Source of the DNA: Barthelona sp. PCE
Lineage: Eukaryota
NCBI GenBank assembly: GCA_040285745.1
Contig: JAUFOR010000005.1
Span: 434,001-498,000 of the forward strand
Direction of reading: 5' to 3'
Length of the DNA: 64,000 bases
Shown here: positions 3,419 to 52,278 of the stretch, piece by piece
How the letters are laid out: each line of letters opens with the position of its first letter
How positions within the stretch are numbered: the first letter of the stretch is position 1
Program-made: the position numbers and the translations under genes
Notes under the pieces: generated by a model
What the model was told of the DNA's origin: nothing
Databases searched by the model: none
What the model saw: the letters and a program-made list of their open reading frames with translations, nothing else

Positions 3419-6220
3419 ATGTCAACTGTAACTGTTAACGGCCAGGACTTCCATGTCAAGGAAGGTACCAACTACTCTGTCGAAACCGTCACCAACGCTG
3501 CCGGACGTACTGTCCCAGCTTGGATTGAAGGATACGGCGTTATTAAGCCTTTCGCAGGTGCTTTCGAAACCCTCCCCAATCCCGAAGAACAGGCTATTCC
3601 TACAGTCAAATTCAGTAAGCCAGGTGAATCAAAACTCGTCGCTGACTTATCTACCGCTCTTAAGGAGTGTGGTCTTAAGGATGGCATGACCATTTCCCTT
3701 CATCATCACCTTCGTAACGGTTGTAATGTTGCCCCGATGATTTACACTTGTCTTGCTGAGTCAGGTTGCAAGGATCTTGAGATTGCTGCATCAAGTGTCC
3801 ATCCCGTCCAGGCACCCACTCTCATCCCCCTCATCGAGAACGGTCAGGTTGTTAAGATCCACACTGGTTTGAACGGTCCTACTGGAAAGTTCGTTTCTGA
3901 AGGCAACATGAAGTACCCCGTCGTTGTTCGTTCTCATGGTTCCCGTGTTCGCGCTGTCGTCACTGGTGACATCAAGATTGATATTGCAGTCATTGCCGCT
4001 TCAGCTGCTGATCTGACTGGTAACGCTAACGGCTTATCTGGTAAAAACAACTGTGGCCCTCTCGCATACGCCGAAATTGATTCCCGCTATGCCAAGAAGG
4101 TTATCGTCGTCACCGATACCCTCGTCCCCTACCCTTGTACCCCTATGGCTATCAAGGGCACCCAGGTGGACCACATTGTTGTTCTTCCCGAAGGTGAGTT
4201 CATTGGTAACCCCAAGAAGATCTCTTCAACAACCACCAAGCTCAGCCGTACTGAGCCCGGTTGGACAATCGCAAAGATGGCCGCTGACTTTATGTTTGAG
4301 TCTGGTTACGTCAAGAACGGTTTCTCATTCCAAGCCGGTGCAGGTGGTGCATCCCTCGGTTCTGTCTATTTCCTTGGTGAGATTATGCGTCGTGAAGGAA
4401 TTACTGCCTCTTGGGCAAACGGTGGTACCACAAAGTACATTGTTGATATGATGAAGGAAGGTCTCGTTGATAAGATTACCACTTGTCAGGCCTTTGACAT
4501 CCCAGCCATTGAATCTATGATCACTGATATGTCACGTCATGTTGAATCATCGATTGATCAATACGCTAACCCCTTTAACAAGCACTGTGTCGTCCACGAT
4601 CTCGATGTTGTTGTCCTTGGTGCTACTGAGGTCGATCTCGACTTTAACGTTAACGTTAACACCCATAGTGATGGTTATCTCCTTCACAACACTGGTGGTC
4701 ATCAGGATACAGCCGCAGGTGGTAAGCTTGCCATCATTGTTGCCCCTGTTGCCCGTGGTTCCAACCCTATCATCATCCCCCGTGTCACTTCCATCACTAC
4801 CCCCGGTGAGTGCGTTGATGCTATTGTCACTGAGGTTGGTATTGCAATCAACCCCAAACGTACCGATTTACTTGAGATCTTGAAGGATTCCGAGCTCCCC
4901 ATCTACACAATGGAGGAACTCTACGAGATTGGCTGTAAGAAGGCTGGTCGTGTTCCCTCTGCCCCATCTGTCAAGGAGAACATTATCGGTATCATCCAAT
5001 GGAGAGACGGCACAGTTATTGATGTTGTCTATGAGGTTGCCAACCCCATTCCTGATGGTCTCAAGCTCAAGTCTGACTGTATCGTCAAGGTCGAGAAGAT
5101 CGAAGGTGAGTCAGAGGTTGAAGTCTTATTGTATGATAACTCACCTATGGTTCCTGTTGAGGAAATGAGGGAACTTGCTCTTGATATGCTCAAGTTCTAC
5201 GGTTTGGAGAACGTCAAGATTTCAATTACTGATAAGGTTGCTGAGAAGTGGACCATTGCTGCTCGTATCGAGTATGCCCTCAAGAATGAATTTAAGGTTA
5301 CCGGCGCATATCTTCTTCCTCTTCACCCCGAGTTGGAGAATCGCCAACAACGCGACAAGAAGGCTTTCCGCCGTTCTATGCTTTATGTTCCTGGTAACAA
5401 CCCCTACATGATGGCCAAGGCTGACTGTGGTGCTGATTGTGTCATTTACGATATGGAAGATGCTGTTGCCCCCAAGGATAAGCCTTTCGCACGTATTCTT
5501 GCCCGTAACGCTCTCCGTGCCGTCCCCTTCGGACAAACCGAGCGCCAAGTTCGTATCAACCAGGCAGATTTTGGTCTTGAAGATATCCGTGATATCGTTA
5601 AGAACGCTCCTGTCGACCTTATCTTTGTCCCCAAGGTCGAGACCGCTGAAGAACTTGAAGCAATCGAAGCTGTCATTGATGAGTGCAATCCTGACATTCG
5701 TCCTTACATTGTTCCCCTTATCGAATCTGCTATTGGTGTTGAGTACGTATTTGACATTATCAAGAATAACAAGGAGAACATTGTTGGTCTTTCTATGGGT
5801 CTTGAGGATTATACCGCTAATATTGGTGCCATTAGAACCAAGACTGATGAGGAAAGCGCTTGGGCACAAAACCGTGTCAACAATGCTGCTGCTGCTTTTG
5901 GCCTTCAGTCATATGACTCTGTCTTTTCTGATTTCAATGATGTTGAGGGTCTAGTCAAGTCTGTCAAGCGTGCTAAGGGTCTTGGATTCGTTGGTAAGCG
6001 TCTGATTCATCCTTCTCAAATCAAGCACACTAACAAGGCTTTCCTTCCTGAAGCAAAGGAGCTTGAGCGCGCCATGGCTATTGTCCGTGCTTTCAACGCT
6101 GCTAACGGTGGTGCTGTAGCTCTTGGTAAGAAGATGATTGACCTGCCTGTTTGTGAACGTGCTCAACAGGTTGTTCGTCTTGCTGTCAAGGCTGGTATGA
6201 TTGCTGAGAACTGGGAGTAA
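3419..6220 (+). CDS. citF-citD-citE: Fused citrate lyase: CitF (alpha, CoA/ACP-transferase) + CitD (gamma, ACP) + CitE (beta, citryl lyase)
   Basis: CitF motifs GLKDGMTISLHHHLRNG, SFQAGAGG, GATEVDLDFNVNV, GGHQDTAAG, WRDGTVIDVV (to ~5040). CitD-like KSDCIVKV...GLENVKISITDK..WTIAARIEYAL (~5051-5290). CitE motifs RRSMLYVPGN, DMEDAV, VRIN, PLIES, GLEDY, GKRLIHPSQI (5369-6220). Confidence 0.93.
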   Translation: MSTVTVNGQDFHVKEGTNYSVETVTNAAGRTVPAWIEGYGVIKPFAGAFETLPNPEEQAIPTVKFSKPGESKLVADLSTALKECGLKDGMTISLHHHLRNGCNVAPMIYTCLAESGCKDLEIAASSVHPVQAPTLIPLIENGQVVKIHTGLNGPTGKFVSEGNMKYPVVVRSHGSRVRAVVTGDIKIDIAVIAASAADLTGNANGLSGKNNCGPLAYAEIDSRYAKKVIVVTDTLVPYPCTPMAIKGTQVDHIVVLPEGEFIGNPKKISSTTTKLSRTEPGWTIAKMAADFMFESGYVKNGFSFQAGAGGASLGSVYFLGEIMRREGITASWANGGTTKYIVDMMKEGLVDKITTCQAFDIPAIESMITDMSRHVESSIDQYANPFNKHCVVHDLDVVVLGATEVDLDFNVNVNTHSDGYLLHNTGGHQDTAAGGKLAIIVAPVARGSNPIIIPRVTSITTPGECVDAIVTEVGIAINPKRTDLLEILKDSELPIYTMEELYEIGCKKAGRVPSAPSVKENIIGIIQWRDGTVIDVVYEVANPIPDGLKLKSDCIVKVEKIEGESEVEVLLYDNSPMVPVEEMRELALDMLKFYGLENVKISITDKVAEKWTIAARIEYALKNEFKVTGAYLLPLHPELENRQQRDKKAFRRSMLYVPGNNPYMMAKADCGADCVIYDMEDAVAPKDKPFARILARNALRAVPFGQTERQVRINQADFGLEDIRDIVKNAPVDLIFVPKVETAEELEAIEAVIDECNPDIRPYIVPLIESAIGVEYVFDIIKNNKENIVGLSMGLEDYTANIGAIRTKTDEESAWAQNRVNNAAAAFGLQSYDSVFSDFNDVEGLVKSVKRAKGLGFVGKRLIHPSQIKHTNKAFLPEAKELERAMAIVRAFNAANGGAVALGKKMIDLPVCERAQQVVRLAVKAGMIAENWE

Positions 6221-7309: not shown

Positions 7310-10300
7310 ATGGGGTGCACAAGTTCCAAGGTAACTGATCAGGTATACCTACAGGAAGAATCCCTGAACCAGGATCAGCATGACAGATTAATGATTTCCT
7401 TGCCAAAAACGTCGAATAATGATATTGTAGATACAGAAAGTGCTCTATCGACGTATAGAGAGAAACCACCGGTTTTTGAAACGTATGTTGAGGAGTTAGC
7501 TTCCTCATACGAGTTTAGAACAACTTTTTGTGGCGGTGGTGGTGGTAACGAGAGAAATTCAGAGTTTTTACATGAATCCAATCCCCAATTCCGCATCTGC
7601 GCTCCAGCAGGAACTAAGTTAAAGCTTCATATTCACCAAGAACAACCCTGGGGACAACGTCGAAGTGTCGGATTCTTTTGCTTTGGTACATCAGCACAGT
7701 TACCCTTGAAGACATTAGATGTTGTGGACACATTCGTACACATGGGCAAAATGAACACAAACCCTGTAGAAGCAGAAATAGAGATGCCTAATAATGGAAT
7801 CATGATTATTGTGCTTAGTCGAGTTCATAGCGCACAAACACAATACATCTTCACCATCGACTCAGTTGATGGCACAGGCATAGATTGCGAGCATACTATC
7901 CTTCCTCCATATTTCACATGTGAAGATTTATCATTCACTCAGTCAATAGAGGGTTCATTTCATCCGTCTAATTCTGGAGGTCTGATAGACAGTGGCAGCT
8001 TCCATCTTAACTCAAAGACTATCTTTACTGTGAGAGGTGAAGAATCACAAGCATTTTGTATTAATTTTGAGGTTATTGAAGGGTTTTTTCAATATAATTA
8101 TTATCTTTTTAATTCTAATGATGAATGTATATTCACATTGAACAAGCCAAACAGTAGGAGCTCAAACAGTCGTTTATTCATTAAACCTGGTCGGTATAGT
8201 ATTGTTCCAGCTACTGTTGTTAAGGGGGTTGAGGGTGTGTTCAAAATTGGATTGCACTGTGCAACTGACTTTTCATTGCACATGAAGAACCACCACCAGG
8301 ATAAGAAGCCCGTTTTCGAGCATGATGGAAGGTTTAACGTTCAAGGTTTCGGAAAAGATGGAAATCTTCAGTTTACGCCGCATTATCTGTTGAACATCGT
8401 TAATCCTGAAACATACTTTACTGTCAAGATCGATATTGAGGGCTCTGTGCTATACAGTGTGATCATTCTTGATCAAATGCAAAATATTATCCATTCTTCT
8501 CGTCAAACATCGTTGAATTTTGTTGAAGTAATGATGCTTGATGTTGGACAATACACAATGTACATCACACCAACAAACCCACACGCCCAAAACAGCTACA
8601 ACATGTCAGTTTATTCTCAATCTGATGTGCTGGTTGAAAAAGTCAAGGATCATGTATGTTATTCAAATAATGAAGGTTCAGTGGAGTATATATTTGTAGG
8701 TGAATTCCCCGAAGACGGTGGTTCATCATGGGCAGTTGGCCACTGGAATAATCCACATGTTTACCTTGAGGGTTCTGGAGAGATCAAACTTGAGTTACAG
8801 AGAGTTAAACATTTCAATAATGTAGGTGTTAGCATTCATACTGTTAACGATGACTCATCTCTGTTTAGCAACCAGAACACAACACAGTTTTACAACAGTA
8901 AGCTTAATGCGTTCCCTGGTAACATTGATTTGACCCTTTCTTTACCCCCAAATCAGTATGTTATTGTGTTGCACGGTGTCGAGTCCATCAGGGGATCGTT
9001 TTGGTTGAGAATGTCCTGCAGTCCCTCTGTATTCATTAACCAGTTTGGTTTAGAAAAGGTGACGTCCATTCCAGTCGATGACGATAAGATAGCGTTCGAG
9101 CAATCGTTCACCGTAAGTGATAAGATTCCTGGCATTTACGACGGTGTCAAGGCAGTGGGTGTTCCATCCGATCACGTTGGTCCGCTTGTTGCCTTTAACG
9201 ATGCCGAAGTTTTGCTTTGTGGTCGCAGTGGTCTCTTTAAAGTTGACTCAGTCGAGTTCCGGAAGCAGTGGTGTGTGCGGTACAGCGGCCTCTCACACAG
9301 TGAGCATGAGCCGGTTGAGAAGTTCTTACCAGCCATTGTGCAAGATAAGAATGTCTGTTGCCTGAGTGGACTGCTTTGGTTTTCAGAAAACACAGATTTA
9401 TTGGATAACATACTGGCAGCAAACCACGTGGAGCACATTCAGATCTTGTCTTCATGTAAGATATTTAAGAATTCTCCAAAAACTGCACACACATTTGTCG
9501 TATGGGAAGGTGTCGACCTCACGGTTCCCACTGTAGTTGCCATGCGATACAACGATTTCTACTCGGAGGAGAGGTGTCATATTCTGAGCGAACTTATCAA
9601 GCAAAGTCCCTATATAGTTATCTTAGCTGATTTCAAGCAATGGTATACTCTTTCGAATTACCGCCAGAAGACTTTAGCGTTCAGCTTCCCACTCAATGTG
9701 ATGCTACAGGAGCACGGTATCGATATTCAGTATATCCTAGGTGCGTTCCAAAGCAGCGACTGTCCTACTCCGGAGATGCAAGCTGCTGATCCAGATATCG
9801 ACTATGCTGACATCGAAGAATGGTGGTTTGCTGTAGAAGGCGGTTCTACACACCCATTTACAATGTTTTCGACAGAGTATTCACAGAAGTATATTAAATA
9901 CACACATTTTTCTCAAACAGGCAATGCTCTTTCTATTTTAGCAGATCCAAAGTCAAATGTTACTCTCAACGAACGCGTATTCGAGTCCCTAGGACACGTT
10001 ATTGAGATGGGTCTGTTCGGACTTGATCCTTCATGCGATTCTTTCACCGAAACCATCGAGAAAGTTGATGGTTTACTGCCCAGCGTTTTAGTCTGTAATG
10101 AGCAGCCAGTTAATCACAAACACGTCTTTAAGCGTGCCCAACTTGCCCGTGATGTAGCTAGGGCGACAGTCGGACTTCCGGTCGAGGTAGATTATTTCCT
10201 GACATTCCCCGGAGATATTCGCAATCATGCAGCAAAAGATCAAGTGGTTACCGAGATTCAGATCCCAGAACACATCCCAGGAGGAAATGTCGGGTACACA

Positions 10301-11458
10301 TACGGCTACCTCCCACTAGATATATATATTCCACCACGAACAAAGGTTTTAGTATGTTTTGAAGGTGCAGATTTTGAAGGGTGTCAGATTCAAGTTGGAG
10401 TACATGGTGACAACGCGTTCTTCACACAGAAACCGATTAAGAGATTCCCTGAATGCACTCAGAGATTTGATATAATTTCTAACAAAGTGGAATTTTATTC
10501 GGAGGTTGGTGGCCCTCTCATGTTTTATCTCCCATACAACGCCCCGCAGCGTAGAAACGTAGCCGGTAAGCTGGTTACAATCACAGCAGAGAACTGCGTA
10601 CCTATGATCCATCATCGCTGCTTCCAAGGCGAGGAGCTGCCAAGGGCTACTGATGCACCATGGTTTTTCCTTGAGAGCAGACACATTTTGCTTGTACTAC
10701 CCTCGCGTTTTATTACAGCACTCGAAGCGGACGATATTATGGTGGAGTACGATAAAATGGTGGAGTATCTTTTAGATTTTCCAGTTTTTTCAAAGTATCA
10801 ATGGCAAATTCCGCATTTCATTGTCCCAGACCCCTCTCCATCCAACGGAGGGTCGGCTGCGCACGCTGGTAACCCCATTGTTACTTATATTTTCGATGAA
10901 CAGGGGTATAATCTTCTTTTCGATGTAGGTCGATTTAGTACAAAGGGAGATGGTGAATTGGCGCTGGAAGCACACGAGATAGCGCACAATCTCACATTTG
11001 GAATGTCTTTATGCTTTGAGGGTGTGATTGAAGGTATTGCATGTTATCTTAGCGCCTATGCAGCTGGAAAGGCAACTGGGCGTTCAATTTATCAGAATCC
11101 ACGCTTCCTTAAAGGACGTCAGTACGCTTTACTCTTCCTTGGTGATAGTACACTTACACCACATGATCGCTTCAAGAGAATGATTGCAGATGCTTATGTG
11201 CTTGGTGCTCAGTTCCTCTATCTGATAGATGAGGCGTTCCCAATTGGGCTAGCAAAGTACCTCGAAATGGAGATGGAAGCGCCGTACTTTGAGAACAATA
11301 GTGAACGTAGAAATTTCTCAATTGTTACAATGTCAAAAGCATGCAATGTTTCTATGCTTGAATATTATGACAAATGGGGTATTCCGTTCGACGATGCATC
11401 TAGGTCAACCGTTGAAGCTCTAAATCTCGAATCATGGATGCCTGAGCTTCTTCAATAA
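7310..11458 (+). CDS. N-acylated protein with several calpain domain-III-like repeats and a C-terminal M60-like (TCAF/FAM115-type) metallopeptidase
   Basis: MGCTSS N-terminus. Calpain-III-like segments: GGG...NPQFRI, NSGG...PGRYSIVPAT..EGVFKI, WNNPHVYL. M60-like segments: QIQVGVHGD, KRFPE, GGPLMF, APWFFLE, HAGNPIV, HEIAH-x10-E (HEIAH at 10973-10987). Confidence 0.7.
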   Translation: MGCTSSKVTDQVYLQEESLNQDQHDRLMISLPKTSNNDIVDTESALSTYREKPPVFETYVEELASSYEFRTTFCGGGGGNERNSEFLHESNPQFRICAPAGTKLKLHIHQEQPWGQRRSVGFFCFGTSAQLPLKTLDVVDTFVHMGKMNTNPVEAEIEMPNNGIMIIVLSRVHSAQTQYIFTIDSVDGTGIDCEHTILPPYFTCEDLSFTQSIEGSFHPSNSGGLIDSGSFHLNSKTIFTVRGEESQAFCINFEVIEGFFQYNYYLFNSNDECIFTLNKPNSRSSNSRLFIKPGRYSIVPATVVKGVEGVFKIGLHCATDFSLHMKNHHQDKKPVFEHDGRFNVQGFGKDGNLQFTPHYLLNIVNPETYFTVKIDIEGSVLYSVIILDQMQNIIHSSRQTSLNFVEVMMLDVGQYTMYITPTNPHAQNSYNMSVYSQSDVLVEKVKDHVCYSNNEGSVEYIFVGEFPEDGGSSWAVGHWNNPHVYLEGSGEIKLELQRVKHFNNVGVSIHTVNDDSSLFSNQNTTQFYNSKLNAFPGNIDLTLSLPPNQYVIVLHGVESIRGSFWLRMSCSPSVFINQFGLEKVTSIPVDDDKIAFEQSFTVSDKIPGIYDGVKAVGVPSDHVGPLVAFNDAEVLLCGRSGLFKVDSVEFRKQWCVRYSGLSHSEHEPVEKFLPAIVQDKNVCCLSGLLWFSENTDLLDNILAANHVEHIQILSSCKIFKNSPKTAHTFVVWEGVDLTVPTVVAMRYNDFYSEERCHILSELIKQSPYIVILADFKQWYTLSNYRQKTLAFSFPLNVMLQEHGIDIQYILGAFQSSDCPTPEMQAADPDIDYADIEEWWFAVEGGSTHPFTMFSTEYSQKYIKYTHFSQTGNALSILADPKSNVTLNERVFESLGHVIEMGLFGLDPSCDSFTETIEKVDGLLPSVLVCNEQPVNHKHVFKRAQLARDVARATVGLPVEVDYFLTFPGDIRNHAAKDQVVTEIQIPEHIPGGNVGYTYGYLPLDIYIPPRTKVLVCFEGADFEGCQIQVGVHGDNAFFTQKPIKRFPECTQRFDIISNKVEFYSEVGGPLMFYLPYNAPQRRNVAGKLVTITAENCVPMIHHRCFQGEELPRATDAPWFFLESRHILLVLPSRFITALEADDIMVEYDKMVEYLLDFPVFSKYQWQIPHFIVPDPSPSNGGSAAHAGNPIVTYIFDEQGYNLLFDVGRFSTKGDGELALEAHEIAHNLTFGMSLCFEGVIEGIACYLSAYAAGKATGRSIYQNPRFLKGRQYALLFLGDSTLTPHDRFKRMIADAYVLGAQFLYLIDEAFPIGLAKYLEMEMEAPYFENNSERRNFSIVTMSKACNVSMLEYYDKWGIPFDDASRSTVEALNLESWMPELLQ

Positions 11459-11500
11459 ATGTACATTGTAAGCAATTTTTCCTGTATTTTCTTTTTTAGC

Positions 11501-14500
11501 ATGATTCAGGACTTGTTTTTTAACAAGAGGGGGGTAGCATCATTTTGGGATCGTTTTGAGAAGTGTAAGAGCTTCAGTTGGCTTATTTTGTTTGGTAACA
11601 TTTCGCAACTTTTATTTCCTTTGGATTTGTATAAAAGGGCCATTTTGATCGCGTTGAACAACCTTCTGTACATGTGGTTATCACTGCCTCAAACATTTAT
11701 AGTAGCTGTAAGCTATTCTATCACAATGTCTGCGTTTGGTTATTTTTCATTCTTCTATGCATGTTTAACCGGTGATATAATATCCATTATTGCGATAACT
11801 GGAGGGTTTGTTTCGTTTGTAAGCTTACACACGTTTATAACGTTTTTATCCATTTGGATCACCATTGTTGGCTGCATAATGGGGACCTGTATGGGACTAT
11901 TCTTCACGTTATACCTCCACACGTTCACCACAGTTCTGTACATGCTGTACGAGGTATTCTATCGGTTGCTTTCAATACATCATTTCAATATGGTTGAGAC
12001 TTCTCTGCATTTGATCATCGATCGTCTGTTTACTGAGTTAGAGCTGCTCAGAAAGCGTTTCATACCTCTTGATATACTCCAAGTGATGCGTAGTGTTGCA
12101 GAATTACGAAACCAACGCCGTACATTTGATTTTATGGCGGTTCTGGATTGTTTAGATTTTGATAAAAGGATAATGTTGGATAAGAACGTTCCCGTTTTTA
12201 TTGATATATGTCGTTCGTTGCCCATACATAGTTTGTTGTTGGAAGTTCGTGAATGTCCCGTATTGTGTATGGATTGTGTGAAATTCACGAAATTTTGTCA
12301 TCAAAACGATGCTGAGAGCTCAGCAAGGCTGCTACACGATCTTTTCACACTACTGGACCGGATGTCGTACATGTTCGATGTGACGTGTGTACGCACTGTA
12401 GGTGACGCATACTTTGTTATACCACGGCTCTCTAAGGATGACGTTGAGTGGAATAGTGACTACAATTCCCTGCTGTGCAACACATTAGAGGACCCAGACT
12501 ACGGTCTGCGTGCGCACCTTAACCTAATTGCATTTGGAATTCGTACAATGCACTTACTCCATTTTTTTGGATGCTTCACTGGACAAACGATGCGTGTACG
12601 TATTGCAATAGCCAGAGGATCCGTGGATGTGATGTGTCTGAGCGACACACCGCAGGGTATGGATATTTGTGGGGAGGTTATGGAAGAGGCAGACCGGTTG
12701 CAAGGTCAGGCTAATCCCAATGATCCTAACAAGACCATTGTGTTGTCTGCTGAGGTGGCCAAGACAGTTAGCGAGTCTATAGAGCTCAATGAGGGACGTT
12801 TTGTTCGAATGAAGCTGGATTCTGACCTTGAATTCATAAATGAAGAAGCGAGGAATGTTTTTATTCTTGATCGTCAATCTACTATTGCTTTCGAGTTCAA
12901 GGGAGGATTTCAAACAGAATTTGTTGAAAACCCTGAGAGAGAAGGATATGTAGCTAGTAGTATTGTATCAAAGGAATTGATTCATAAGATTATGGCACGT
13001 GTTTACAGTGTTACTCCTTCACATGACAAGGTGCCTGAGCGACCTCCACTGTTCAAGAATCCAGACACCGTGGAGATACGAAATAATGAGGCCAAAGTTT
13101 GGAGGAAGACAATAGCTCGACATAAGAACCTCAAATGGGAGGATTCAATCATTGAAACAGACACTGTCGATAAGTTAGGGCACTTTATTGTGACTAATGT
13201 CCTTTGGAGAACATCAATGGGTATTTTTCTTTCTTTCTTGTATTGTCATCAAACTACTACAGCATATGCAATCATCTGTTTATTTCTCTGCGGATTTGTT
13301 GCGTTTACGTGCGTGTTTGACGCATATCTGCAGTCATTTCTGGTCGCTCCATTGCAATTTGTTATTCTGTTTAGGAGTCTGCTTTTTTTCCTTCTTATTC
13401 CATTGGTGGTGACGGGATCCATCACCACAGTGGGCATCCAGTGGCTATGTGTGCTCACTGCAGGGTTAAGTGTTGGTTTCAGAACTTCGCAAGCCCTTCT
13501 GTCATTTTTACCTATATCTTTCATTATGTTTATGATGTTGGATCCGTTTCTCGGCGTTCTGTGTGTGTCTTTCGTCATCCTGTTCTTGATGCACCTTGAT
13601 TTTGTGTTTCACATTATGCTTCGTATCAATTCCCAGGTAAGAACCGCAATTCAAACGTTCTTCACGCAGACAGCCCGAAGTATTCCAGCACCGGCGCTTA
13701 ACTCCCTGCTATCCAACCCAGAAACTGAGCCTTTCTTCATTGTTGATCAAGCGTATGTCGCATGGGTCCAGCTGTTAGACTGCCAAAGTATCCCAAAGGA
13801 AGAGATGGTCATGATGTCATCTCTTATGTTTAATAATGCATTGGAGATCCTACAGTACTTCCCCCAGGTGTCTCCTTTGAAGTACTCTAATGGGTTGCTG
13901 GTTTTTGTGGTATCTAAGAATCCACAGCCATGTCCTTTCCCTAATGACCCATACGCGACGCAATTGTGGCTCAACGTTACGCATCTGGATCGCATCTCAC
14001 AGATACTTAACGCCACATACGCTATGTACCGAATGTGTTTTTCATTTCGGAATGCACTACCTTCCATGAGTCAGTACATCGGTATGAGCTATACACTAGT
14101 GTCTGGGCCACTGGTGTGCGGGATGTTTGATATCTCGAAGTTTGATATCGTTGGAGACTTGGCAAATACAGCAGCAAGGATTTCAAAAAATTTTCCTACT
14201 TCAACACGGGATACAATAACTGTAAGCTCTCAGTTCCGTGATTTCTATCTAGATTTTATGCAAAGTTTATTGCTGCAAATTAATACTGTACCTGAAGCCT
14301 ATGCTAAGGCGCTTAACAGATGCATGAAATATTGCAAGATTTTTTCAGAACTGATTGTAGGCAACAGTATGGTGTTGGACAAGACAATTGAAGAGACGCC
14401 ACATATTTACAAGGCCGAATTTAGTGAAAGTGTCGAAATTTCTGCCAAAGGTTTAGGAACTATAACTGTGTATGGTATCCCACAAAACGATGATACGTTG

Positions 14501-14506
14501 ATGTAA
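11501..14506 (+). CDS. Membrane class III nucleotidyl cyclase (TM-C1-TM-C2), probably an adenylyl cyclase
   Basis: Two hydrophobic blocks. C1 has MDCVKFT and TVGDAY; C2 has LKY, FDIVGDLANTAARI and AKGLG. Start is either 11459 (abuts upstream stop) or 11501. Confidence 0.85.
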   Translation: MIQDLFFNKRGVASFWDRFEKCKSFSWLILFGNISQLLFPLDLYKRAILIALNNLLYMWLSLPQTFIVAVSYSITMSAFGYFSFFYACLTGDIISIIAITGGFVSFVSLHTFITFLSIWITIVGCIMGTCMGLFFTLYLHTFTTVLYMLYEVFYRLLSIHHFNMVETSLHLIIDRLFTELELLRKRFIPLDILQVMRSVAELRNQRRTFDFMAVLDCLDFDKRIMLDKNVPVFIDICRSLPIHSLLLEVRECPVLCMDCVKFTKFCHQNDAESSARLLHDLFTLLDRMSYMFDVTCVRTVGDAYFVIPRLSKDDVEWNSDYNSLLCNTLEDPDYGLRAHLNLIAFGIRTMHLLHFFGCFTGQTMRVRIAIARGSVDVMCLSDTPQGMDICGEVMEEADRLQGQANPNDPNKTIVLSAEVAKTVSESIELNEGRFVRMKLDSDLEFINEEARNVFILDRQSTIAFEFKGGFQTEFVENPEREGYVASSIVSKELIHKIMARVYSVTPSHDKVPERPPLFKNPDTVEIRNNEAKVWRKTIARHKNLKWEDSIIETDTVDKLGHFIVTNVLWRTSMGIFLSFLYCHQTTTAYAIICLFLCGFVAFTCVFDAYLQSFLVAPLQFVILFRSLLFFLLIPLVVTGSITTVGIQWLCVLTAGLSVGFRTSQALLSFLPISFIMFMMLDPFLGVLCVSFVILFLMHLDFVFHIMLRINSQVRTAIQTFFTQTARSIPAPALNSLLSNPETEPFFIVDQAYVAWVQLLDCQSIPKEEMVMMSSLMFNNALEILQYFPQVSPLKYSNGLLVFVVSKNPQPCPFPNDPYATQLWLNVTHLDRISQILNATYAMYRMCFSFRNALPSMSQYIGMSYTLVSGPLVCGMFDISKFDIVGDLANTAARISKNFPTSTRDTITVSSQFRDFYLDFMQSLLLQINTVPEAYAKALNRCMKYCKIFSELIVGNSMVLDKTIEETPHIYKAEFSESVEISAKGLGTITVYGIPQNDDTLM

Positions 14507-19791: not shown

Positions 19792-21312
19792 CTAACCAAA
19801 GTTGCAATCTAACGGTGTCCATTGTAGTTCAATGAAGAACTCTCCAGAATTTGACGGGGGGCACTCTAAAATAACTTCAAATTGGTTAAACTTTGTTACA
19901 CTACAAGCCATATGACTATTAACCAATAAATCGATTTTGTTTCCCACCTTGAAGATAAAATCACCACCCTTTGATGTGAACTTGATCATTGAATGTCCTT
20001 TACGGACATCAGTTACCATAGATGTAATATTACCACTAGCAGCGTGAGCATGTGGTCTAAAAAGCACATCTGACTTGCACTGCTGGAAGGAATACTTTCC
20101 TTGCACATCATCGATGTACCACAGACCCTCATAAGCACCGAGATATCCGCTTGCAGTTGTCGGGTCATTCAGACTCTTATATGACCAGTATGCTGTACTC
20201 ACTAACATAGCATCAGCGCCATTCATGACCCTCTCCATGTCTCTGAGGGAGGCGGGATCGTCCCATACAGCACCGAATTCTGTTAAAAACTGACCACTAC
20301 CTAATTTCTTAATATCATTTTGATGAATAGAAAAAGCTTCTAACTCTTGTAGAGCACACTTCGCATCATTGATTGGGATACCCTTATCATTGATGGCTAC
20401 AGTACAATAAACATGAAAAGAATAAGCGATACGATCCCAAGGTAAATCATCGACTAAGAAACCACTAGGAAGGATATCTGCAGCCACAGGTTCAAGGAAA
20501 AGAATGGCGTCAGGGTCGATCCTGTAAACTGCTCGAGCAACCTTTTTGTACAAAGGCATTAGATTTTCATGATCGGCAGCGCCTGGTTTGAGTAAATGTG
20601 GTTTGTTAAAGATATCACCAATGAATGGTTCGTTGATGATCTCATAACCCAGCGTATAATCACAATTCCTAAGGTGTTTAACGACAGCTGTCCACATATT
20701 AACAAAATGTTCTTGTATGTTATTAATATTATCATATAAAGCTTGCCAAAGCTCAGATTGTGCGAAAGACATATAGTAGTCCCCAAACATATGCTTTAAA
20801 CATATTTCTTTAGGAATTAAACCATCATCATTTCTTTCAAAACGTGGAAATCTTGGTTCAGGAAATGACGTAACATTGACATTAACAAAAGGTGCCAGCC
20901 ATTTGCAGCCCTCTCCACACATCTGATCAGTTAGGAGATCTTGATGTAAATCGATAATGGAATATATTCCGTAATTTCCTGCTAGGTCAACAATGTTCTT
21001 GATGTTATCCAGATATTTGTAATCAATGTGACCCGGGGATGGCTCTACACCTGACCAAATTATGCCAAGACGAATGACAGTGATACCCTGTTGTTGCATA
21101 AACAGAAAATCGTGTTCGTTTAGGGACATGGATGCGCTCCACTGCTTAGTTTTGTAGTCAGGATAGTATGGGGGGTTCTTTTGGACTACATTGACGCCTC
21201 TAAAGACAATGTCCCTATTTAAGTGATCGTAGAAACGACCATTTCGCATAGTAATCCGTTTAGAAGTTGCTAAAATAAGAAGAAAAGCAATTATGCAAAA
21301 CAAAAGCTTCAT
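19792..21312 (-). CDS. Secreted glycoside hydrolase family 5, endoglycoceramidase-like
   Basis: Signal peptide; FRGVNVV, IRLGIIWSGVEP, IIDLHQD, GYEIINEP (acid/base Glu), SFHVYC, FLTEFG (nucleophile Glu). Confidence 0.9.
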   Translation of the reverse strand: MKLLFCIIAFLLILATSKRITMRNGRFYDHLNRDIVFRGVNVVQKNPPYYPDYKTKQWSASMSLNEHDFLFMQQQGITVIRLGIIWSGVEPSPGHIDYKYLDNIKNIVDLAGNYGIYSIIDLHQDLLTDQMCGEGCKWLAPFVNVNVTSFPEPRFPRFERNDDGLIPKEICLKHMFGDYYMSFAQSELWQALYDNINNIQEHFVNMWTAVVKHLRNCDYTLGYEIINEPFIGDIFNKPHLLKPGAADHENLMPLYKKVARAVYRIDPDAILFLEPVAADILPSGFLVDDLPWDRIAYSFHVYCTVAINDKGIPINDAKCALQELEAFSIHQNDIKKLGSGQFLTEFGAVWDDPASLRDMERVMNGADAMLVSTAYWSYKSLNDPTTASGYLGAYEGLWYIDDVQGKYSFQQCKSDVLFRPHAHAASGNITSMVTDVRKGHSMIKFTSKGGDFIFKVGNKIDLLVNSHMACSVTKFNQFEVILECPPSNSGEFFIELQWTPLDCNFG

Positions 21313-43944: not shown

Positions 43945-45201
43945 TTATTTCTCACAAGTACCAGGTTTTTCTCTCTTTCTATTAAGACGCATGTGGCTGG
44001 ACACAAGCTCTCGGGCCGCCAGAGCAGCACATAAGTTTAATTCTCCTGCTAATACTGTTCCAGCAATAACTTTTGCCAATCTTTTTGATGCGAAACCTGG
44101 GTTTTCACGATCTATAACACATCCAATAAGCGTTAGAAGGTTCTGTTGTGCAGGGAGGTGGGTCCCACCACCTATTGTTCCGACTTCAAGTGAAGGCAAT
44201 GTTACACTCATGTAAAGATCACCATTTTCTGTTTTTTCCATATTTGTGATACAATTTGAGCTTTCTACGACTTGTGCGCAGTCTTGTCCAAGGGCAAGAA
44301 ATGAAGCAGCAACGAGATTTGCAGCATGGGCGTTAAAACCTCCAAGGGCACCTGCAACTGCACTACCCACGAGGTTTTTACGTGTGTTCAAATCAACAAT
44401 CGTGTCCACACTTACCTTTAGCACCTTGGAAAGAACATCTTTTTCTATGACAGTTTCACAAATTACACTTTTGCCACGTCCATCAAGCCAGTTAACTGCT
44501 GTAGCCTTCTTATCAGTGCACACATTTCCACTAATTGCAACCACTTTGAAAGGGTATTTATCACCACATTCATTAGCAAGATGTTCAAGACATGCCTTGA
44601 CGCCTTTGCTAATCATATTCATACCCATTGCATCTCCCGTGAACGCACAGAAGCGGACATAGAGGTTCCTTCCACTGTGGAAGCACTTTATACTCTCTAG
44701 ACGACCAAAACTAGTTGTCGAATTGAAAGCTATCATTAAACCTGTAAGCCCTTCGTTTTCAATGTAAAGTGCTAATTCAACAGCATCTGCTGCGCTATTG
44801 AGTGTTAGACAGGGTGCGCGGGTCATTCCATCTCTGAAAATTGTCGAAATACAACCACCAGATGCATTGATGGCTTTGCATCCCCTGGAACAACCTGCTA
44901 CGAGGCATCCTTCAGTTGTGGCCATTGGTAGAGGCACCTTCTCGTCGTTTATGAGTAGAGGGCCTGCTAAACCAAGTGGAATGGGCACATAACCAATGAC
45001 ATTTTCACAATTCTGTCCCAATATTGCATTATAATCGTAGCCCGTATGCGGAACGCCCTCAATACTGCACGAAGTAGTACGTTCATAGTACTCTCGTCTA
45101 ATTTCAACAGCTTCAGCTGGAGAAAAAAGCTTCTCAAGTTTATAAAGTGGAATCGACCCTTCAATCAGCTTATCAACGATTTCTTCCCTAGAAACTTCCA
45201 T
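43945..45201 (-). CDS. HMGR: Class I HMG-CoA reductase, catalytic domain only
   Basis: CENVIGY, PMATTEGCLVA, DGMTRAP, TGDAMGMNM, GNVCTDKK, GQDCAQ, VGTIGGGT, SSHM. Confidence 0.96.
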   Translation of the reverse strand: MEVSREEIVDKLIEGSIPLYKLEKLFSPAEAVEIRREYYERTTSCSIEGVPHTGYDYNAILGQNCENVIGYVPIPLGLAGPLLINDEKVPLPMATTEGCLVAGCSRGCKAINASGGCISTIFRDGMTRAPCLTLNSAADAVELALYIENEGLTGLMIAFNSTTSFGRLESIKCFHSGRNLYVRFCAFTGDAMGMNMISKGVKACLEHLANECGDKYPFKVVAISGNVCTDKKATAVNWLDGRGKSVICETVIEKDVLSKVLKVSVDTIVDLNTRKNLVGSAVAGALGGFNAHAANLVAASFLALGQDCAQVVESSNCITNMEKTENGDLYMSVTLPSLEVGTIGGGTHLPAQQNLLTLIGCVIDRENPGFASKRLAKVIAGTVLAGELNLCAALAARELVSSHMRLNRKREKPGTCEK

Positions 45202-51471: not shown

Positions 51472-52278
51472 TTAAAATAGAATTTTCTTCATGGCGATAA
51501 AACCAGCAATCAAGACAAATACAGTTACAAACATTCTAATAACCTTTCTGTAACGAGTAACAGGACTATACTTATACTTGATGGTTAGTTCAACATTATC
51601 ATACTTACCTTCGTGCTCAAAAACAATGGTAGGGCGTCCTTTAAAATCCAATTGATCCAACTCAGACTCGACAACCTTACCTTCTTCAGGTAGTGACCAC
51701 TCAAATGAGACAATCTCAGCTGTTTCAGGCATTCTGATCTTTGTTGAGACAGTGCGCTTATCACCTGCTAAATTAGGTAGAGCTTGAACTTTTAGAGTAG
51801 TAATATCGTCTTGAGTTTCAATAATTTGATTGGTATTGATCTTGAAACCATAGTAAAATGTAGAACGCCATTGTCCCATGATGGGGTAACGGGGTTTGAT
51901 ATCCATTGTAACATAATCTTTTTTAACGATATAGTTTGAAGTGGAAATATTTCCAATTTGATCACGATAATACAGAGAGTCCAGGTTTAGGTTTTTGGGG
52001 AGGTCAAATTCAACACTCTTGATAGCCTTCATCTGTAGGTTCTGCATTCTAGCATAATCCCAACGAGAGAAACCCTCATCAGCAGATGCAAGATTCTTGA
52101 TCTCAACATCATCTCTGAACTTTGTCTTGCCCCATTCGCCCACGGTGATCACACGAGATACCTTCTCGATGGATATTTTTGCCATATCATCACCGGACAG
52201 CGTGAATGGTTTGTTTGCGCTTACAAATGCAAATCCAACACATAATAGTGCCAATACTAGACAGTTCCACACCTTCAT
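51472..52278 (-). CDS. Ribophorin I (OST subunit 1)-like, short form
   Basis: SRVITVGEWG, FSRWDY, YYRDQIGNISTS, KPRYPIMGQWRSTFYYGF, LDFKGRPTIV; signal peptide and C-terminal TM with KKILF. Confidence 0.85.
   Translation of the reverse strand: MKVWNCLVLALLCVGFAFVSANKPFTLSGDDMAKISIEKVSRVITVGEWGKTKFRDDVEIKNLASADEGFSRWDYARMQNLQMKAIKSVEFDLPKNLNLDSLYYRDQIGNISTSNYIVKKDYVTMDIKPRYPIMGQWRSTFYYGFKINTNQIIETQDDITTLKVQALPNLAGDKRTVSTKIRMPETAEIVSFEWSLPEEGKVVESELDQLDFKGRPTIVFEHEGKYDNVELTIKYKYSPVTRYRKVIRMFVTVFVLIAGFIAMKKILF

Follow-up and report, generated by a model that had tools for sequence, protein, structure and literature searches.

A fused CitF-CitD-CitE gene in the anaerobic protist Barthelona and its candidate role as a single-chain, ATP-independent citrate lyase

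How does a gene that resembles an entire bacterial citrate lyase come to lie among ordinary eukaryotic genes, and what would its product do? In the textbook view, eukaryotes rely on ATP-citrate lyase and the ATP-independent enzyme is left to bacteria. We analyzed a stretch of 64,000 nucleotides from Barthelona sp. PCE, referred to here as the window, which contains at positions 3419-6220 one real, eukaryotic gene with CitF, CitD, and CitE fused in a single frame. On balance, sequence comparison and structure prediction incline us to see in it a nuclear gene of an anaerobic protist that encodes a single-chain, ATP-independent, and probably cytosolic citrate lyase of prokaryotic origin, whose carrier domain is not armed in the classical way.

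Domain composition of the fused protein

The first-pass annotation of the window, made from the nucleotide sequence, had described one open reading frame (ORF) with a complete CitF, a CitD-like acyl-carrier protein (ACP), and a complete CitE. Pfam and NCBIfam scans, a CitD profile, and alignment with bacterial proteins bear out this description. The first domain matches PF04223 (residues 71-540, E = 2e-143) and passes the cut-off of the citF equivalog TIGR01584 (523 bits, cut-off 501), and 84 alignment columns are invariant between it and 14 other CitF proteins. The middle domain is recognized by PF06857 (residues 551-622, 26.9 bits, cut-off 25.1) and the third by the HpcH_HpaI family PF03328 (residues 652-865, E = 3e-42).

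The structure prediction proposed along with that description agrees with it. AlphaFold2 models the whole chain with a mean predicted local distance difference test score (pLDDT) of 95.2 and a predicted template modelling score (pTM) of 0.90, the middle domain adopting a beta-beta-alpha-beta-alpha arrangement. Foldseek aligns the CitF domain with 2hj0_A (E = 2e-50, template modelling (TM) score for the target 0.94) and the CitE domain with CLYBL, 5vxo_A (E = 4e-20, 0.88). The fold of the CitE domain is shared with human CLYBL, M. tuberculosis CitE, and malyl-CoA lyases (target TM scores of 0.85-0.88, 27-29% identity), although these stand-alone lyases have neither a CitF nor a CitD partner; at the sequence level, stand-alone CitE-like lyases are matched at E values of 1e-23 to 1e-34.

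ATP-citrate lyase (ACLY, EC 2.3.3.8) likewise splits citrate and yields oxaloacetate, but it is not homologous to the window protein. As the first-pass annotation had supposed, Pfam and NCBIfam scans place no ATP-citrate-lyase domain (ATP-grasp, CoA-ligase, or citrate-synthase-type) in the 933-residue chain, and such domains are also absent from the related Pelomyxa schiedti protein P0005. The window enzyme is predicted to use no ATP and to release acetate rather than acetyl-CoA.

The first reading hinged on the middle segment, and three independent lines of sequence comparison identify residues 551-622 as a true CitD homologue. A profile that we built solely from 31 stand-alone bacterial CitD proteins matches residues 551-623 at E = 7e-9. 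The same profile matches the N-termini of 23 bacterial "CitE" frames, 22 of them at E values of 5e-14 to 1e-28 and the remaining one (L025) partially, at 8e-12. In tblastn searches with residues 546-640, the match falls in the frame directly upstream of CitE in nine bacterial loci, and this frame continues straight into CitE. The best 120 database matches of residues 545-933 are all collinear ACP+HpcH fusions of 387-452 residues (most about 400), with a query cover of 96-100% and 40-46% identity, and the ACP of the collinear bacterial CitDE proteins gives E = 1e-18. The coordinates of the gene and its parts are collected in Table 1.

Table 1. The fused gene and its parts, in positions of the 64,000-nucleotide window
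Feature	Position	Strand	Description
Whole ORF	3419..6220	+	933 residues, single exon, uninterrupted frame, stop TAA at 6218-6220
CitF domain, residues 1-545	3419..5053	+	Pfam match at residues 71-540; Foldseek 2hj0_A
CitF motif GGHQD, residues 426-430	4694..4708	+	As in classical, archaeal, and basal fused-type enzymes; GGWQN in the homoaconitase-linked bacterial clade
CitD-type acyl-carrier domain, residues 551-622	5069..5284	+	Pfam, CitD profile, bacterial alignment, AlphaFold2 model
Ser552 codon, motif KSDC	5072..5074	+	Counterpart of the serine in bacterial fused-type RSDC
D-E linker, residues 623-651	5285..5371	+	YLLP stretch common to bacterial CitD-CitE fusions
CitE / HpcH-type lyase domain, residues 652-924	5372..6190	+	Pfam, NCBIfam, Foldseek

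Relatives and origin of the two halves

The fusion was first thought to have been made in this protist, but it is also carried by at least six further named anaerobic protists. The full-length protein with the order CitF-CitD-CitE (F-D-E) is found in Barthelona sp. PAP020, Kipferlia bialata, Mastigella eilhardi, Pelomyxa schiedti, Mastigamoeba balamuthi, and Paratrimastix pyriformis, as well as in several environmental contigs. These proteins have the same architecture as the window protein, form one clade with it in both domain trees, and are 45-63% identical to it over 83-98% of its length. No closer relative was found than the protein of Barthelona sp. PAP020 (63% identity), and the Kipferlia protein is 53% identical; the window protein is a member of its own, sharing no more than 63% identity with any of these. 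Judged from this protein only, its bearer resembles a metamonad. P0005 from Pelomyxa (1077 residues) differs from it in having a low-complexity N-terminal extension of about 140 residues.

Among the best 150 matches in a database of 1.84 billion cluster representatives (50% identity), only two span both halves in one stretch; the family is small. A full-text literature search returned no description of a eukaryotic CitF-CitD-CitE protein. What emerges is a small, database-visible, and apparently undescribed protist family that would combine a bacterial CitDE fusion with CitF.

Other arrangements occur in two further protist genera. A transcript from Stygiella incarcerata (P0007, 1097 residues) encodes an Aconitase_C/LeuD-type domain (residues 36-101), an ACP (173-248), CitE (277-498), and CitF (624-1090). 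This corresponds to the operon order D-E-F with an aconitase small-subunit-like head, and the transcript may be a chimeric assembly. Anaeramoeba has two genes, CitF (P0014, P0019) and a stand-alone CitDE (P0280, from Anaeramoeba ignava). Since it keeps CitF and CitDE separate within the protist clade, two genes look like the older eukaryotic state.

All non-protist relatives found are bacterial or archaeal. We examined 80 prokaryotic CitF loci and identified CitE in 70 of them; in all 70, CitE lies directly upstream of CitF on the same strand, and the order F-D-E occurs in none of the 80. CitD and CitE form one frame in 23 of the 70 loci, or in 24 if L074, where two frames are split by a frame break, is counted, which makes the initial statement that bacterial citrate lyase normally consists of three separate subunits too simple. 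Such CitD-CitE fusions are present in Bacteroidota, Cloacimonadota, Chloroflexota, Aminicenantes, Gemmatimonadota, Acidobacteriota, Calditrichota, WOR-3, and Bipolaricaulota. Two proteins initially taken for eukaryotic, P0017 and P0018, fall among Acidobacteriota/Gemmatimonadota in both trees; they are bacterial CitE-CitF proteins and were excluded from the protist counts.

The bacterial two-gene type, a CitD-CitE fusion of about 400 residues plus a separate CitF, is the counterpart of the window protein in several respects. In addition to the collinearity described above, the two have in common the (R/K)SDC motif and the YLLP linker, and the CitE tree joins the protist sequences with these fusions at a Shimodaira-Hasegawa-like approximate likelihood ratio (SH-aLRT) support of 100. 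In contrast, the window protein has CitF in front of DE, and protist CitF lacks the derived residues of the CitF from the closest clade and is separate from it.

The trees were obtained in quick IQ-TREE searches and carry SH-aLRT support only. In the CitF tree (99 sequences), the 17 protist sequences form one clade (100) outside all 82 prokaryotic ones. Within this clade, the 11 F-DE fused sequences come together in one subclade (84), with earlier branches leading to the stand-alone and Stygiella forms. In the CitE tree (114 sequences), the 13 protist sequences form one clade (100) within a group of 57 (100), whose remaining 44 members are 42 bacterial CitD-CitE fusions and two truncated bacterial CitE-CitF proteins. 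When the stand-alone CitDE of Anaeramoeba (P0280) is added, the protist CitE clade stays together (99, 15 sequences, one of them an unnamed protein). Paratrimastix groups with Mastigamoeba, whereas Mastigella and Pelomyxa stand apart; the relationships of the genes cut across those of the organisms, suggesting transfer between eukaryotes.

Because CitD and CitE are already fused in bacteria and the protist DE half groups with such fusions, only the join between F and DE is new. Judging from these comparisons, the D-E join is inherited from bacteria and the F-to-DE join is the sole new one, made within eukaryotes: CitF would have been joined in front of a bacterial-type CitD-CitE fusion, and the product would then have spread among anaerobic protists. 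The lateral capture of an operon, proposed at the outset, stands as far as prokaryotic ancestry is concerned. Its collapse into one polypeptide does not, since F-D-E reverses the operon order (DE, then F) and therefore cannot result from simple read-through.

A single bacterial donor clade for all domains, which in per-domain trees would have favored the capture of an operon, did not emerge. Placing protist CitF beside its counterpart in the bacterial clade on the DE side is rejected by an approximately unbiased (AU) test (difference in log-likelihood 83.7, p = 0.006, for a group named after the tree was seen). The halves disagree, and a single donor operon is thus not supported. The disagreement may stem from a mosaic origin of the two halves or from a shift of evolutionary rate within that bacterial clade.

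Carrier arming, substrate, and direction

In the mechanism that we propose from the enzyme families involved, the CitF domain would swap acetyl for citryl on a thioester carrier, and the CitE domain would convert the citryl thioester into oxaloacetate and an acetyl thioester. The net reaction would yield oxaloacetate and acetate from citrate without ATP, and the oxaloacetate could feed into malate/pyruvate fermentation, as is usual in such protists. Resemblance to prokaryotic CitF sets in around residues 24-26, and the first 25 residues or so are modelled by AlphaFold2 as folded beta strands (pLDDT 92-94) rather than as a transit peptide. With no N-terminal presequence, the enzyme is probably cytosolic. 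According to the available portion of a published study, the Pelomyxa homologue, when expressed in yeast, goes to vesicles and not to mitochondria (PMC8887013).

In classical citrate lyase, CitG makes the prosthetic group, CitX attaches it, and CitC primes it. It is bound to a serine, Ser14 in Klebsiella CitD. The candidate counterpart, Ser552 of the window protein, is one residue nearer to the invariant Asp (S-D) than the serine of stand-alone CitD (ES-x-D). The window protein keeps this serine. Pelomyxa and Mastigella have Cys instead and Anaeramoeba has Gly; most of the Mastigamoeba/Paratrimastix group has lost both the serine and its motif. Outside this site the protein stays conserved. 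In our alignment, archaeal and basal fused forms have a lysine or another residue at the serine position. The archaeal stand-alone CitD proteins of Thermoplasmatota (L004, L008) show Lys-Gly in place of the bacterial Ser-x before the invariant Asp.

The arming genes are distributed unevenly among the relatives. A search of the fetched locus flanks, seeded from a classical operon, detected citC/X/G at none of 24 fused-type loci versus 23 of 46 separate-type loci. Genome-wide, counting strong full-length matches, PF01874, PF03802, and PF08218 occur together in 3 of 24 fused-type and all 8 bacterial separate-type genomes. None of the three archaeal genomes (G026, G027, G029; Thermoplasmatota, loci L004, L008, L014) has them, and CitG, CitX, and CitC are each absent from all three.

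Stand-alone CitE relatives such as CLYBL act on free CoA esters, according to the titles of solved structures, which implies that the CitE fold does not need a carrier protein. The rarity of arming genes among fused-type bacteria, the loss of the serine in several protists, and the existence of relatives that use free CoA together make classical arming the less likely option, and the carrier is probably not armed by CitG/CitX in the classical way. The enzyme may instead act on acetyl-CoA and citryl-CoA that are free or loosely bound, the carrier domain serving as a scaffold, a proposal to which we give a chance not far short of even. A different arm on Ser552, such as phosphopantetheine, is possible but rather less to be expected.

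Several observations weigh against a citrate lyase that works without the classical arm. Ser552 is kept in the window protein, Barthelona, Kipferlia, Stygiella, and 10 aligned bacterial proteins of the closest clade, which argues that the serine still matters. All three arming genes are missing from 21 of the 24 bacterial genomes of fused type, but most of these are metagenome bins, so that single absences are weak and some may be gaps; despite this, the contrast between the fused and separate types is not weak. The top NCBIfam model for the third domain, citE (210 bits, against 158 for RipC and 53 for malyl-CoA lyase), remains under its cut-off of 443, as does the top model for the middle domain, citD TIGR01608 (21 bits, cut-off 63.5). 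For the lone carrier domain, modelled with a pLDDT of 84.1, Foldseek finds no match among solved structures with E <= 0.001. The DE half groups with a clade that often carries homoaconitase- and homoisocitrate-dehydrogenase-like genes, so that another substrate is possible. Finally, the citrate-type residues of CitF described below are also present in archaeal and basal fused types and are ancestral; they therefore exclude the derived type and are no proof of citrate.

The best Foldseek matches of the carrier domain are generic beta-beta-alpha-beta-alpha domains (EF-G, Lon, GHMP kinases) at E >= 0.04, and a profile of 54 CitD-type domains finds among PDB sequences MdcC (5vit_C), only at E = 0.11. 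"Symfoil" entries score more strongly with this profile but are repeats of one short motif and were set aside. The structure libraries, which lack a solved CitD, neither support nor contradict the CitD identity of the middle domain.

It is unlikely, in our view, that the protein is a classical citrate lyase in one chain, with 2'-(5''-phosphoribosyl)-3'-dephospho-CoA on Ser552 and with CitG, CitX, and CitC encoded elsewhere in the genome. Conservation of Ser552 and of the invariant Asp behind it in the window, Barthelona, Kipferlia, and Stygiella proteins would suit such an enzyme, as would the CitD homology of the middle domain and the three fused-type genomes that contain citC/X/G. In the one of these that was inspected, however, the Carboxylicivirga-like G001, the arming genes belong to a second, classical operon: the fused CitDE-CitF lies beside a dehydrogenase (L042), and elsewhere (L082) a second CitF is followed by a CitX-CitG fusion of 466 residues and then CitC. 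The shifted position of the serine and its loss from several protist lineages also speak against classical arming, and none of the 38 window ORFs of >=150 residues that were scanned (39 listed) matches CitG, CitX, or CitC. With the arming genes missing from most related bacterial genomes, the "tethered swinging arm" of the first-pass annotation is unproven.

The residues of the CitF domain, along with its score above the citF equivalog cut-off, point to citrate as the likely substrate. Between the CitF of the homoaconitase-linked bacterial clade and that of citC/X/G-linked enzymes, 19 group-conserved columns discriminate, and the window protein has the classical state at 11, that of the homoaconitase-linked clade at four, and neither at four. 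Nine residues were singled out among these columns, all matching the citC/X/G-linked citrate lyases and not the homoaconitase-linked clade. R178, Y217, Y382, D430, T461, and R529 are kept in 17/17 protist CitF sequences, H428 and A432 in 16/17, and P385 in 14/17.

A citrate analogue, cleaved or formed (for example, homocitrate to 2-oxoglutarate and acetate, a reaction that the bacterial clade on the DE side may catalyze), is an improbable substrate. The idea arises from the bacterial clade that encloses the protist DE clade and often has PrpD-like, homoaconitase, and homoisocitrate-dehydrogenase-like genes: an aconitase-family gene lies nearby at 8 of 24 fused-type loci and at 7 of the 13 loci of this clade, and the Stygiella protein carries a fused aconitase/LeuD-type small-subunit domain at its N-terminal end. 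However, the changes that mark the CitF of the clade (Q178, F217, S382, W428, N430, L432, G461, V529) are absent from the window protein and in no case the majority state among the 17 protist sequences, and the AU test rejects a grouping of protist CitF with that clade. CitE contains a single group-specific column, and no aconitase-family, homoaconitase-type, or Iso_dh gene is found among the window ORFs scanned.

The conserved row of genes in these bacteria is best seen at L068 (3001-11569), where PrpD-like, homoaconitase (TIGR00139, 755 bits, cut-off 530), and homoisocitrate-dehydrogenase-like genes are followed by CitDE and CitF. At L050 (8759-16455) the same gene set lies downstream. The row, which also includes HD-domain genes, recurs at L042, L065, and L074, and at all five loci CitF has the derived GGWQN instead of GGHQD.

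Operation mainly in the synthetic direction, from oxaloacetate and acetate or an acetyl thioester to citrate, with the enzyme replacing citrate synthase in protists that have none, is very unlikely. The partial reactions of citrate lyase are reversible, which counts in its favor, but without thioester hydrolysis or ATP there is no driving force for synthesis. Furthermore, 10 of 24 fused-type bacterial genomes have a full-length match to the citrate synthase family PF00285 and three more a partial one; the notion that the bacterial fused type replaces citrate synthase was rejected on this basis. The Pelomyxa protein is reported to be present "instead of citrate synthase", yet in the same available portion of that paper the authors propose that it supplies oxaloacetate (PMC8887013).

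Genomic setting and significance

The fusion gene lies, as noted at the outset of this work, between ordinary eukaryotic genes. Window genes around it encode a gamma-tubulin complex component, RabGAP-TBC, U-box, ribophorin I, a Nup98-type autopeptidase, a beta-CASP nuclease, a PDI-like protein, and ICMT, and in the database record its contig is 766,953 bases long. That the gene is a bacterial contaminant, a product of chimeric assembly, or dead can practically be dismissed: although the GC content at third codon positions (GC3) of the fusion ORF, 0.466, is the highest among 32 long window ORFs (mean of the others 0.343, standard deviation 0.058, maximum 0.455), the codon bias of a well-expressed gene would explain this equally well, eukaryotic genes flank the fusion on both sides on a single contig, the frame is intact across 933 codons, the same fusion occurs with complete ORFs in both transcriptomes (Barthelona, Mastigella, and Paratrimastix) and genomes (Kipferlia, Pelomyxa, Mastigamoeba, and Paratrimastix), and its domain order was seen at none of 80 prokaryotic loci. 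The raised GC3 fits high expression and foreign origin alike and is not decisive for a recent transfer.

Several other window genes deserve mention. Two long ORFs, 7310-11458 (+) and 11459-14506 (+), abut without a spacer, the former with weak M60-like/enhancin and calpain-III matches and the latter with an adenylate/guanylate cyclase domain. An ORF at 19792-21312 (-) belongs to the glycoside hydrolase family 5 (GH5) cellulase family (E = 5e-26) and may be laterally acquired. The catalytic domain of HMG-CoA reductase (E = 1e-132) fills nearly all of a 418-residue ORF at 43945-45201 (-), leaving no space for a long membrane anchor. The ribophorin I match at 51472-52278 (-) is restricted to profile positions 198-436; its N-terminal half is probably in another exon or an upstream ORF, and some window genes may therefore have introns.

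Bacterial CitDEF (EC 4.1.3.6; Klebsiella, E. coli, lactic acid bacteria) is one of the closest known systems. The same three families are involved, the citF cut-off is passed, the window protein keeps the CitF residues that mark citC/X/G-linked enzymes, and the same chemistry is expected. The bacterial enzyme differs in being a hetero-oligomer of three subunits encoded in the order D-E-F, whereas the window protein is one chain encoded by a eukaryotic, nuclear gene. Further differences are its displaced carrier serine, its citE and citD scores under the equivalog cut-offs, and the lack of arming genes in most genomes of its nearest bacterial type.

One member of the family may already figure in the literature under another name. 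P0005 from Pelomyxa schiedti is named "ATP-citrate lyase" at NCBI, but Pfam finds solely CitF and HpcH domains in it, and the label therefore looks mistaken. The available part of a published account describes a Pelomyxa protein as ATP-citrate lyase (ACL) and as a homologue of the human enzyme (PMC8887013); this protein is probably P0005. In the portions of text available, the term "citrate lyase" does not occur in the Mastigamoeba genome, Stygiella, Preaxostyla, Paratrimastix organelle-proteome, or barthelonid/skoliomonad genome papers. Literature matches to a rhizarian "ACL" and to Geobacter citCDEFXG concern, in the parts accessible, other enzymes or classical operons and were set aside.

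A set of anaerobic protists thus carries a bacterial citrate lyase in fused form. The finding would add a step from citrate to oxaloacetate and acetate to their metabolic maps, at least one of which, published for Pelomyxa, labels the protein ACL in the part available (PMC8887013). It offers a clean case of gene fusion after lateral transfer and of eukaryote-to-eukaryote spread of the fused gene, and it raises a testable biochemical question, that of how a CitD-type carrier functions in the absence of the sole arming pathway known. For metabolic engineering, too, a citrate lyase that consists of one chain and needs no ATP could be a convenient part.

Tentatively, and as something possible rather than probable, we suggest a more far-reaching history. 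A laterally acquired lyase would have been welded together and passed between eukaryotes across at least three supergroups (Metamonada, Archamoebae, and jakobid Discoba); it would operate without phosphoribosyl-dephospho-CoA, through free CoA esters or a new arm, and its halves may come from different prokaryotic lineages. If this is true, the protein would represent a mechanistically distinct ATP-independent citrate lyase, providing these cells with a bacterial-style citrate fermentation branch.

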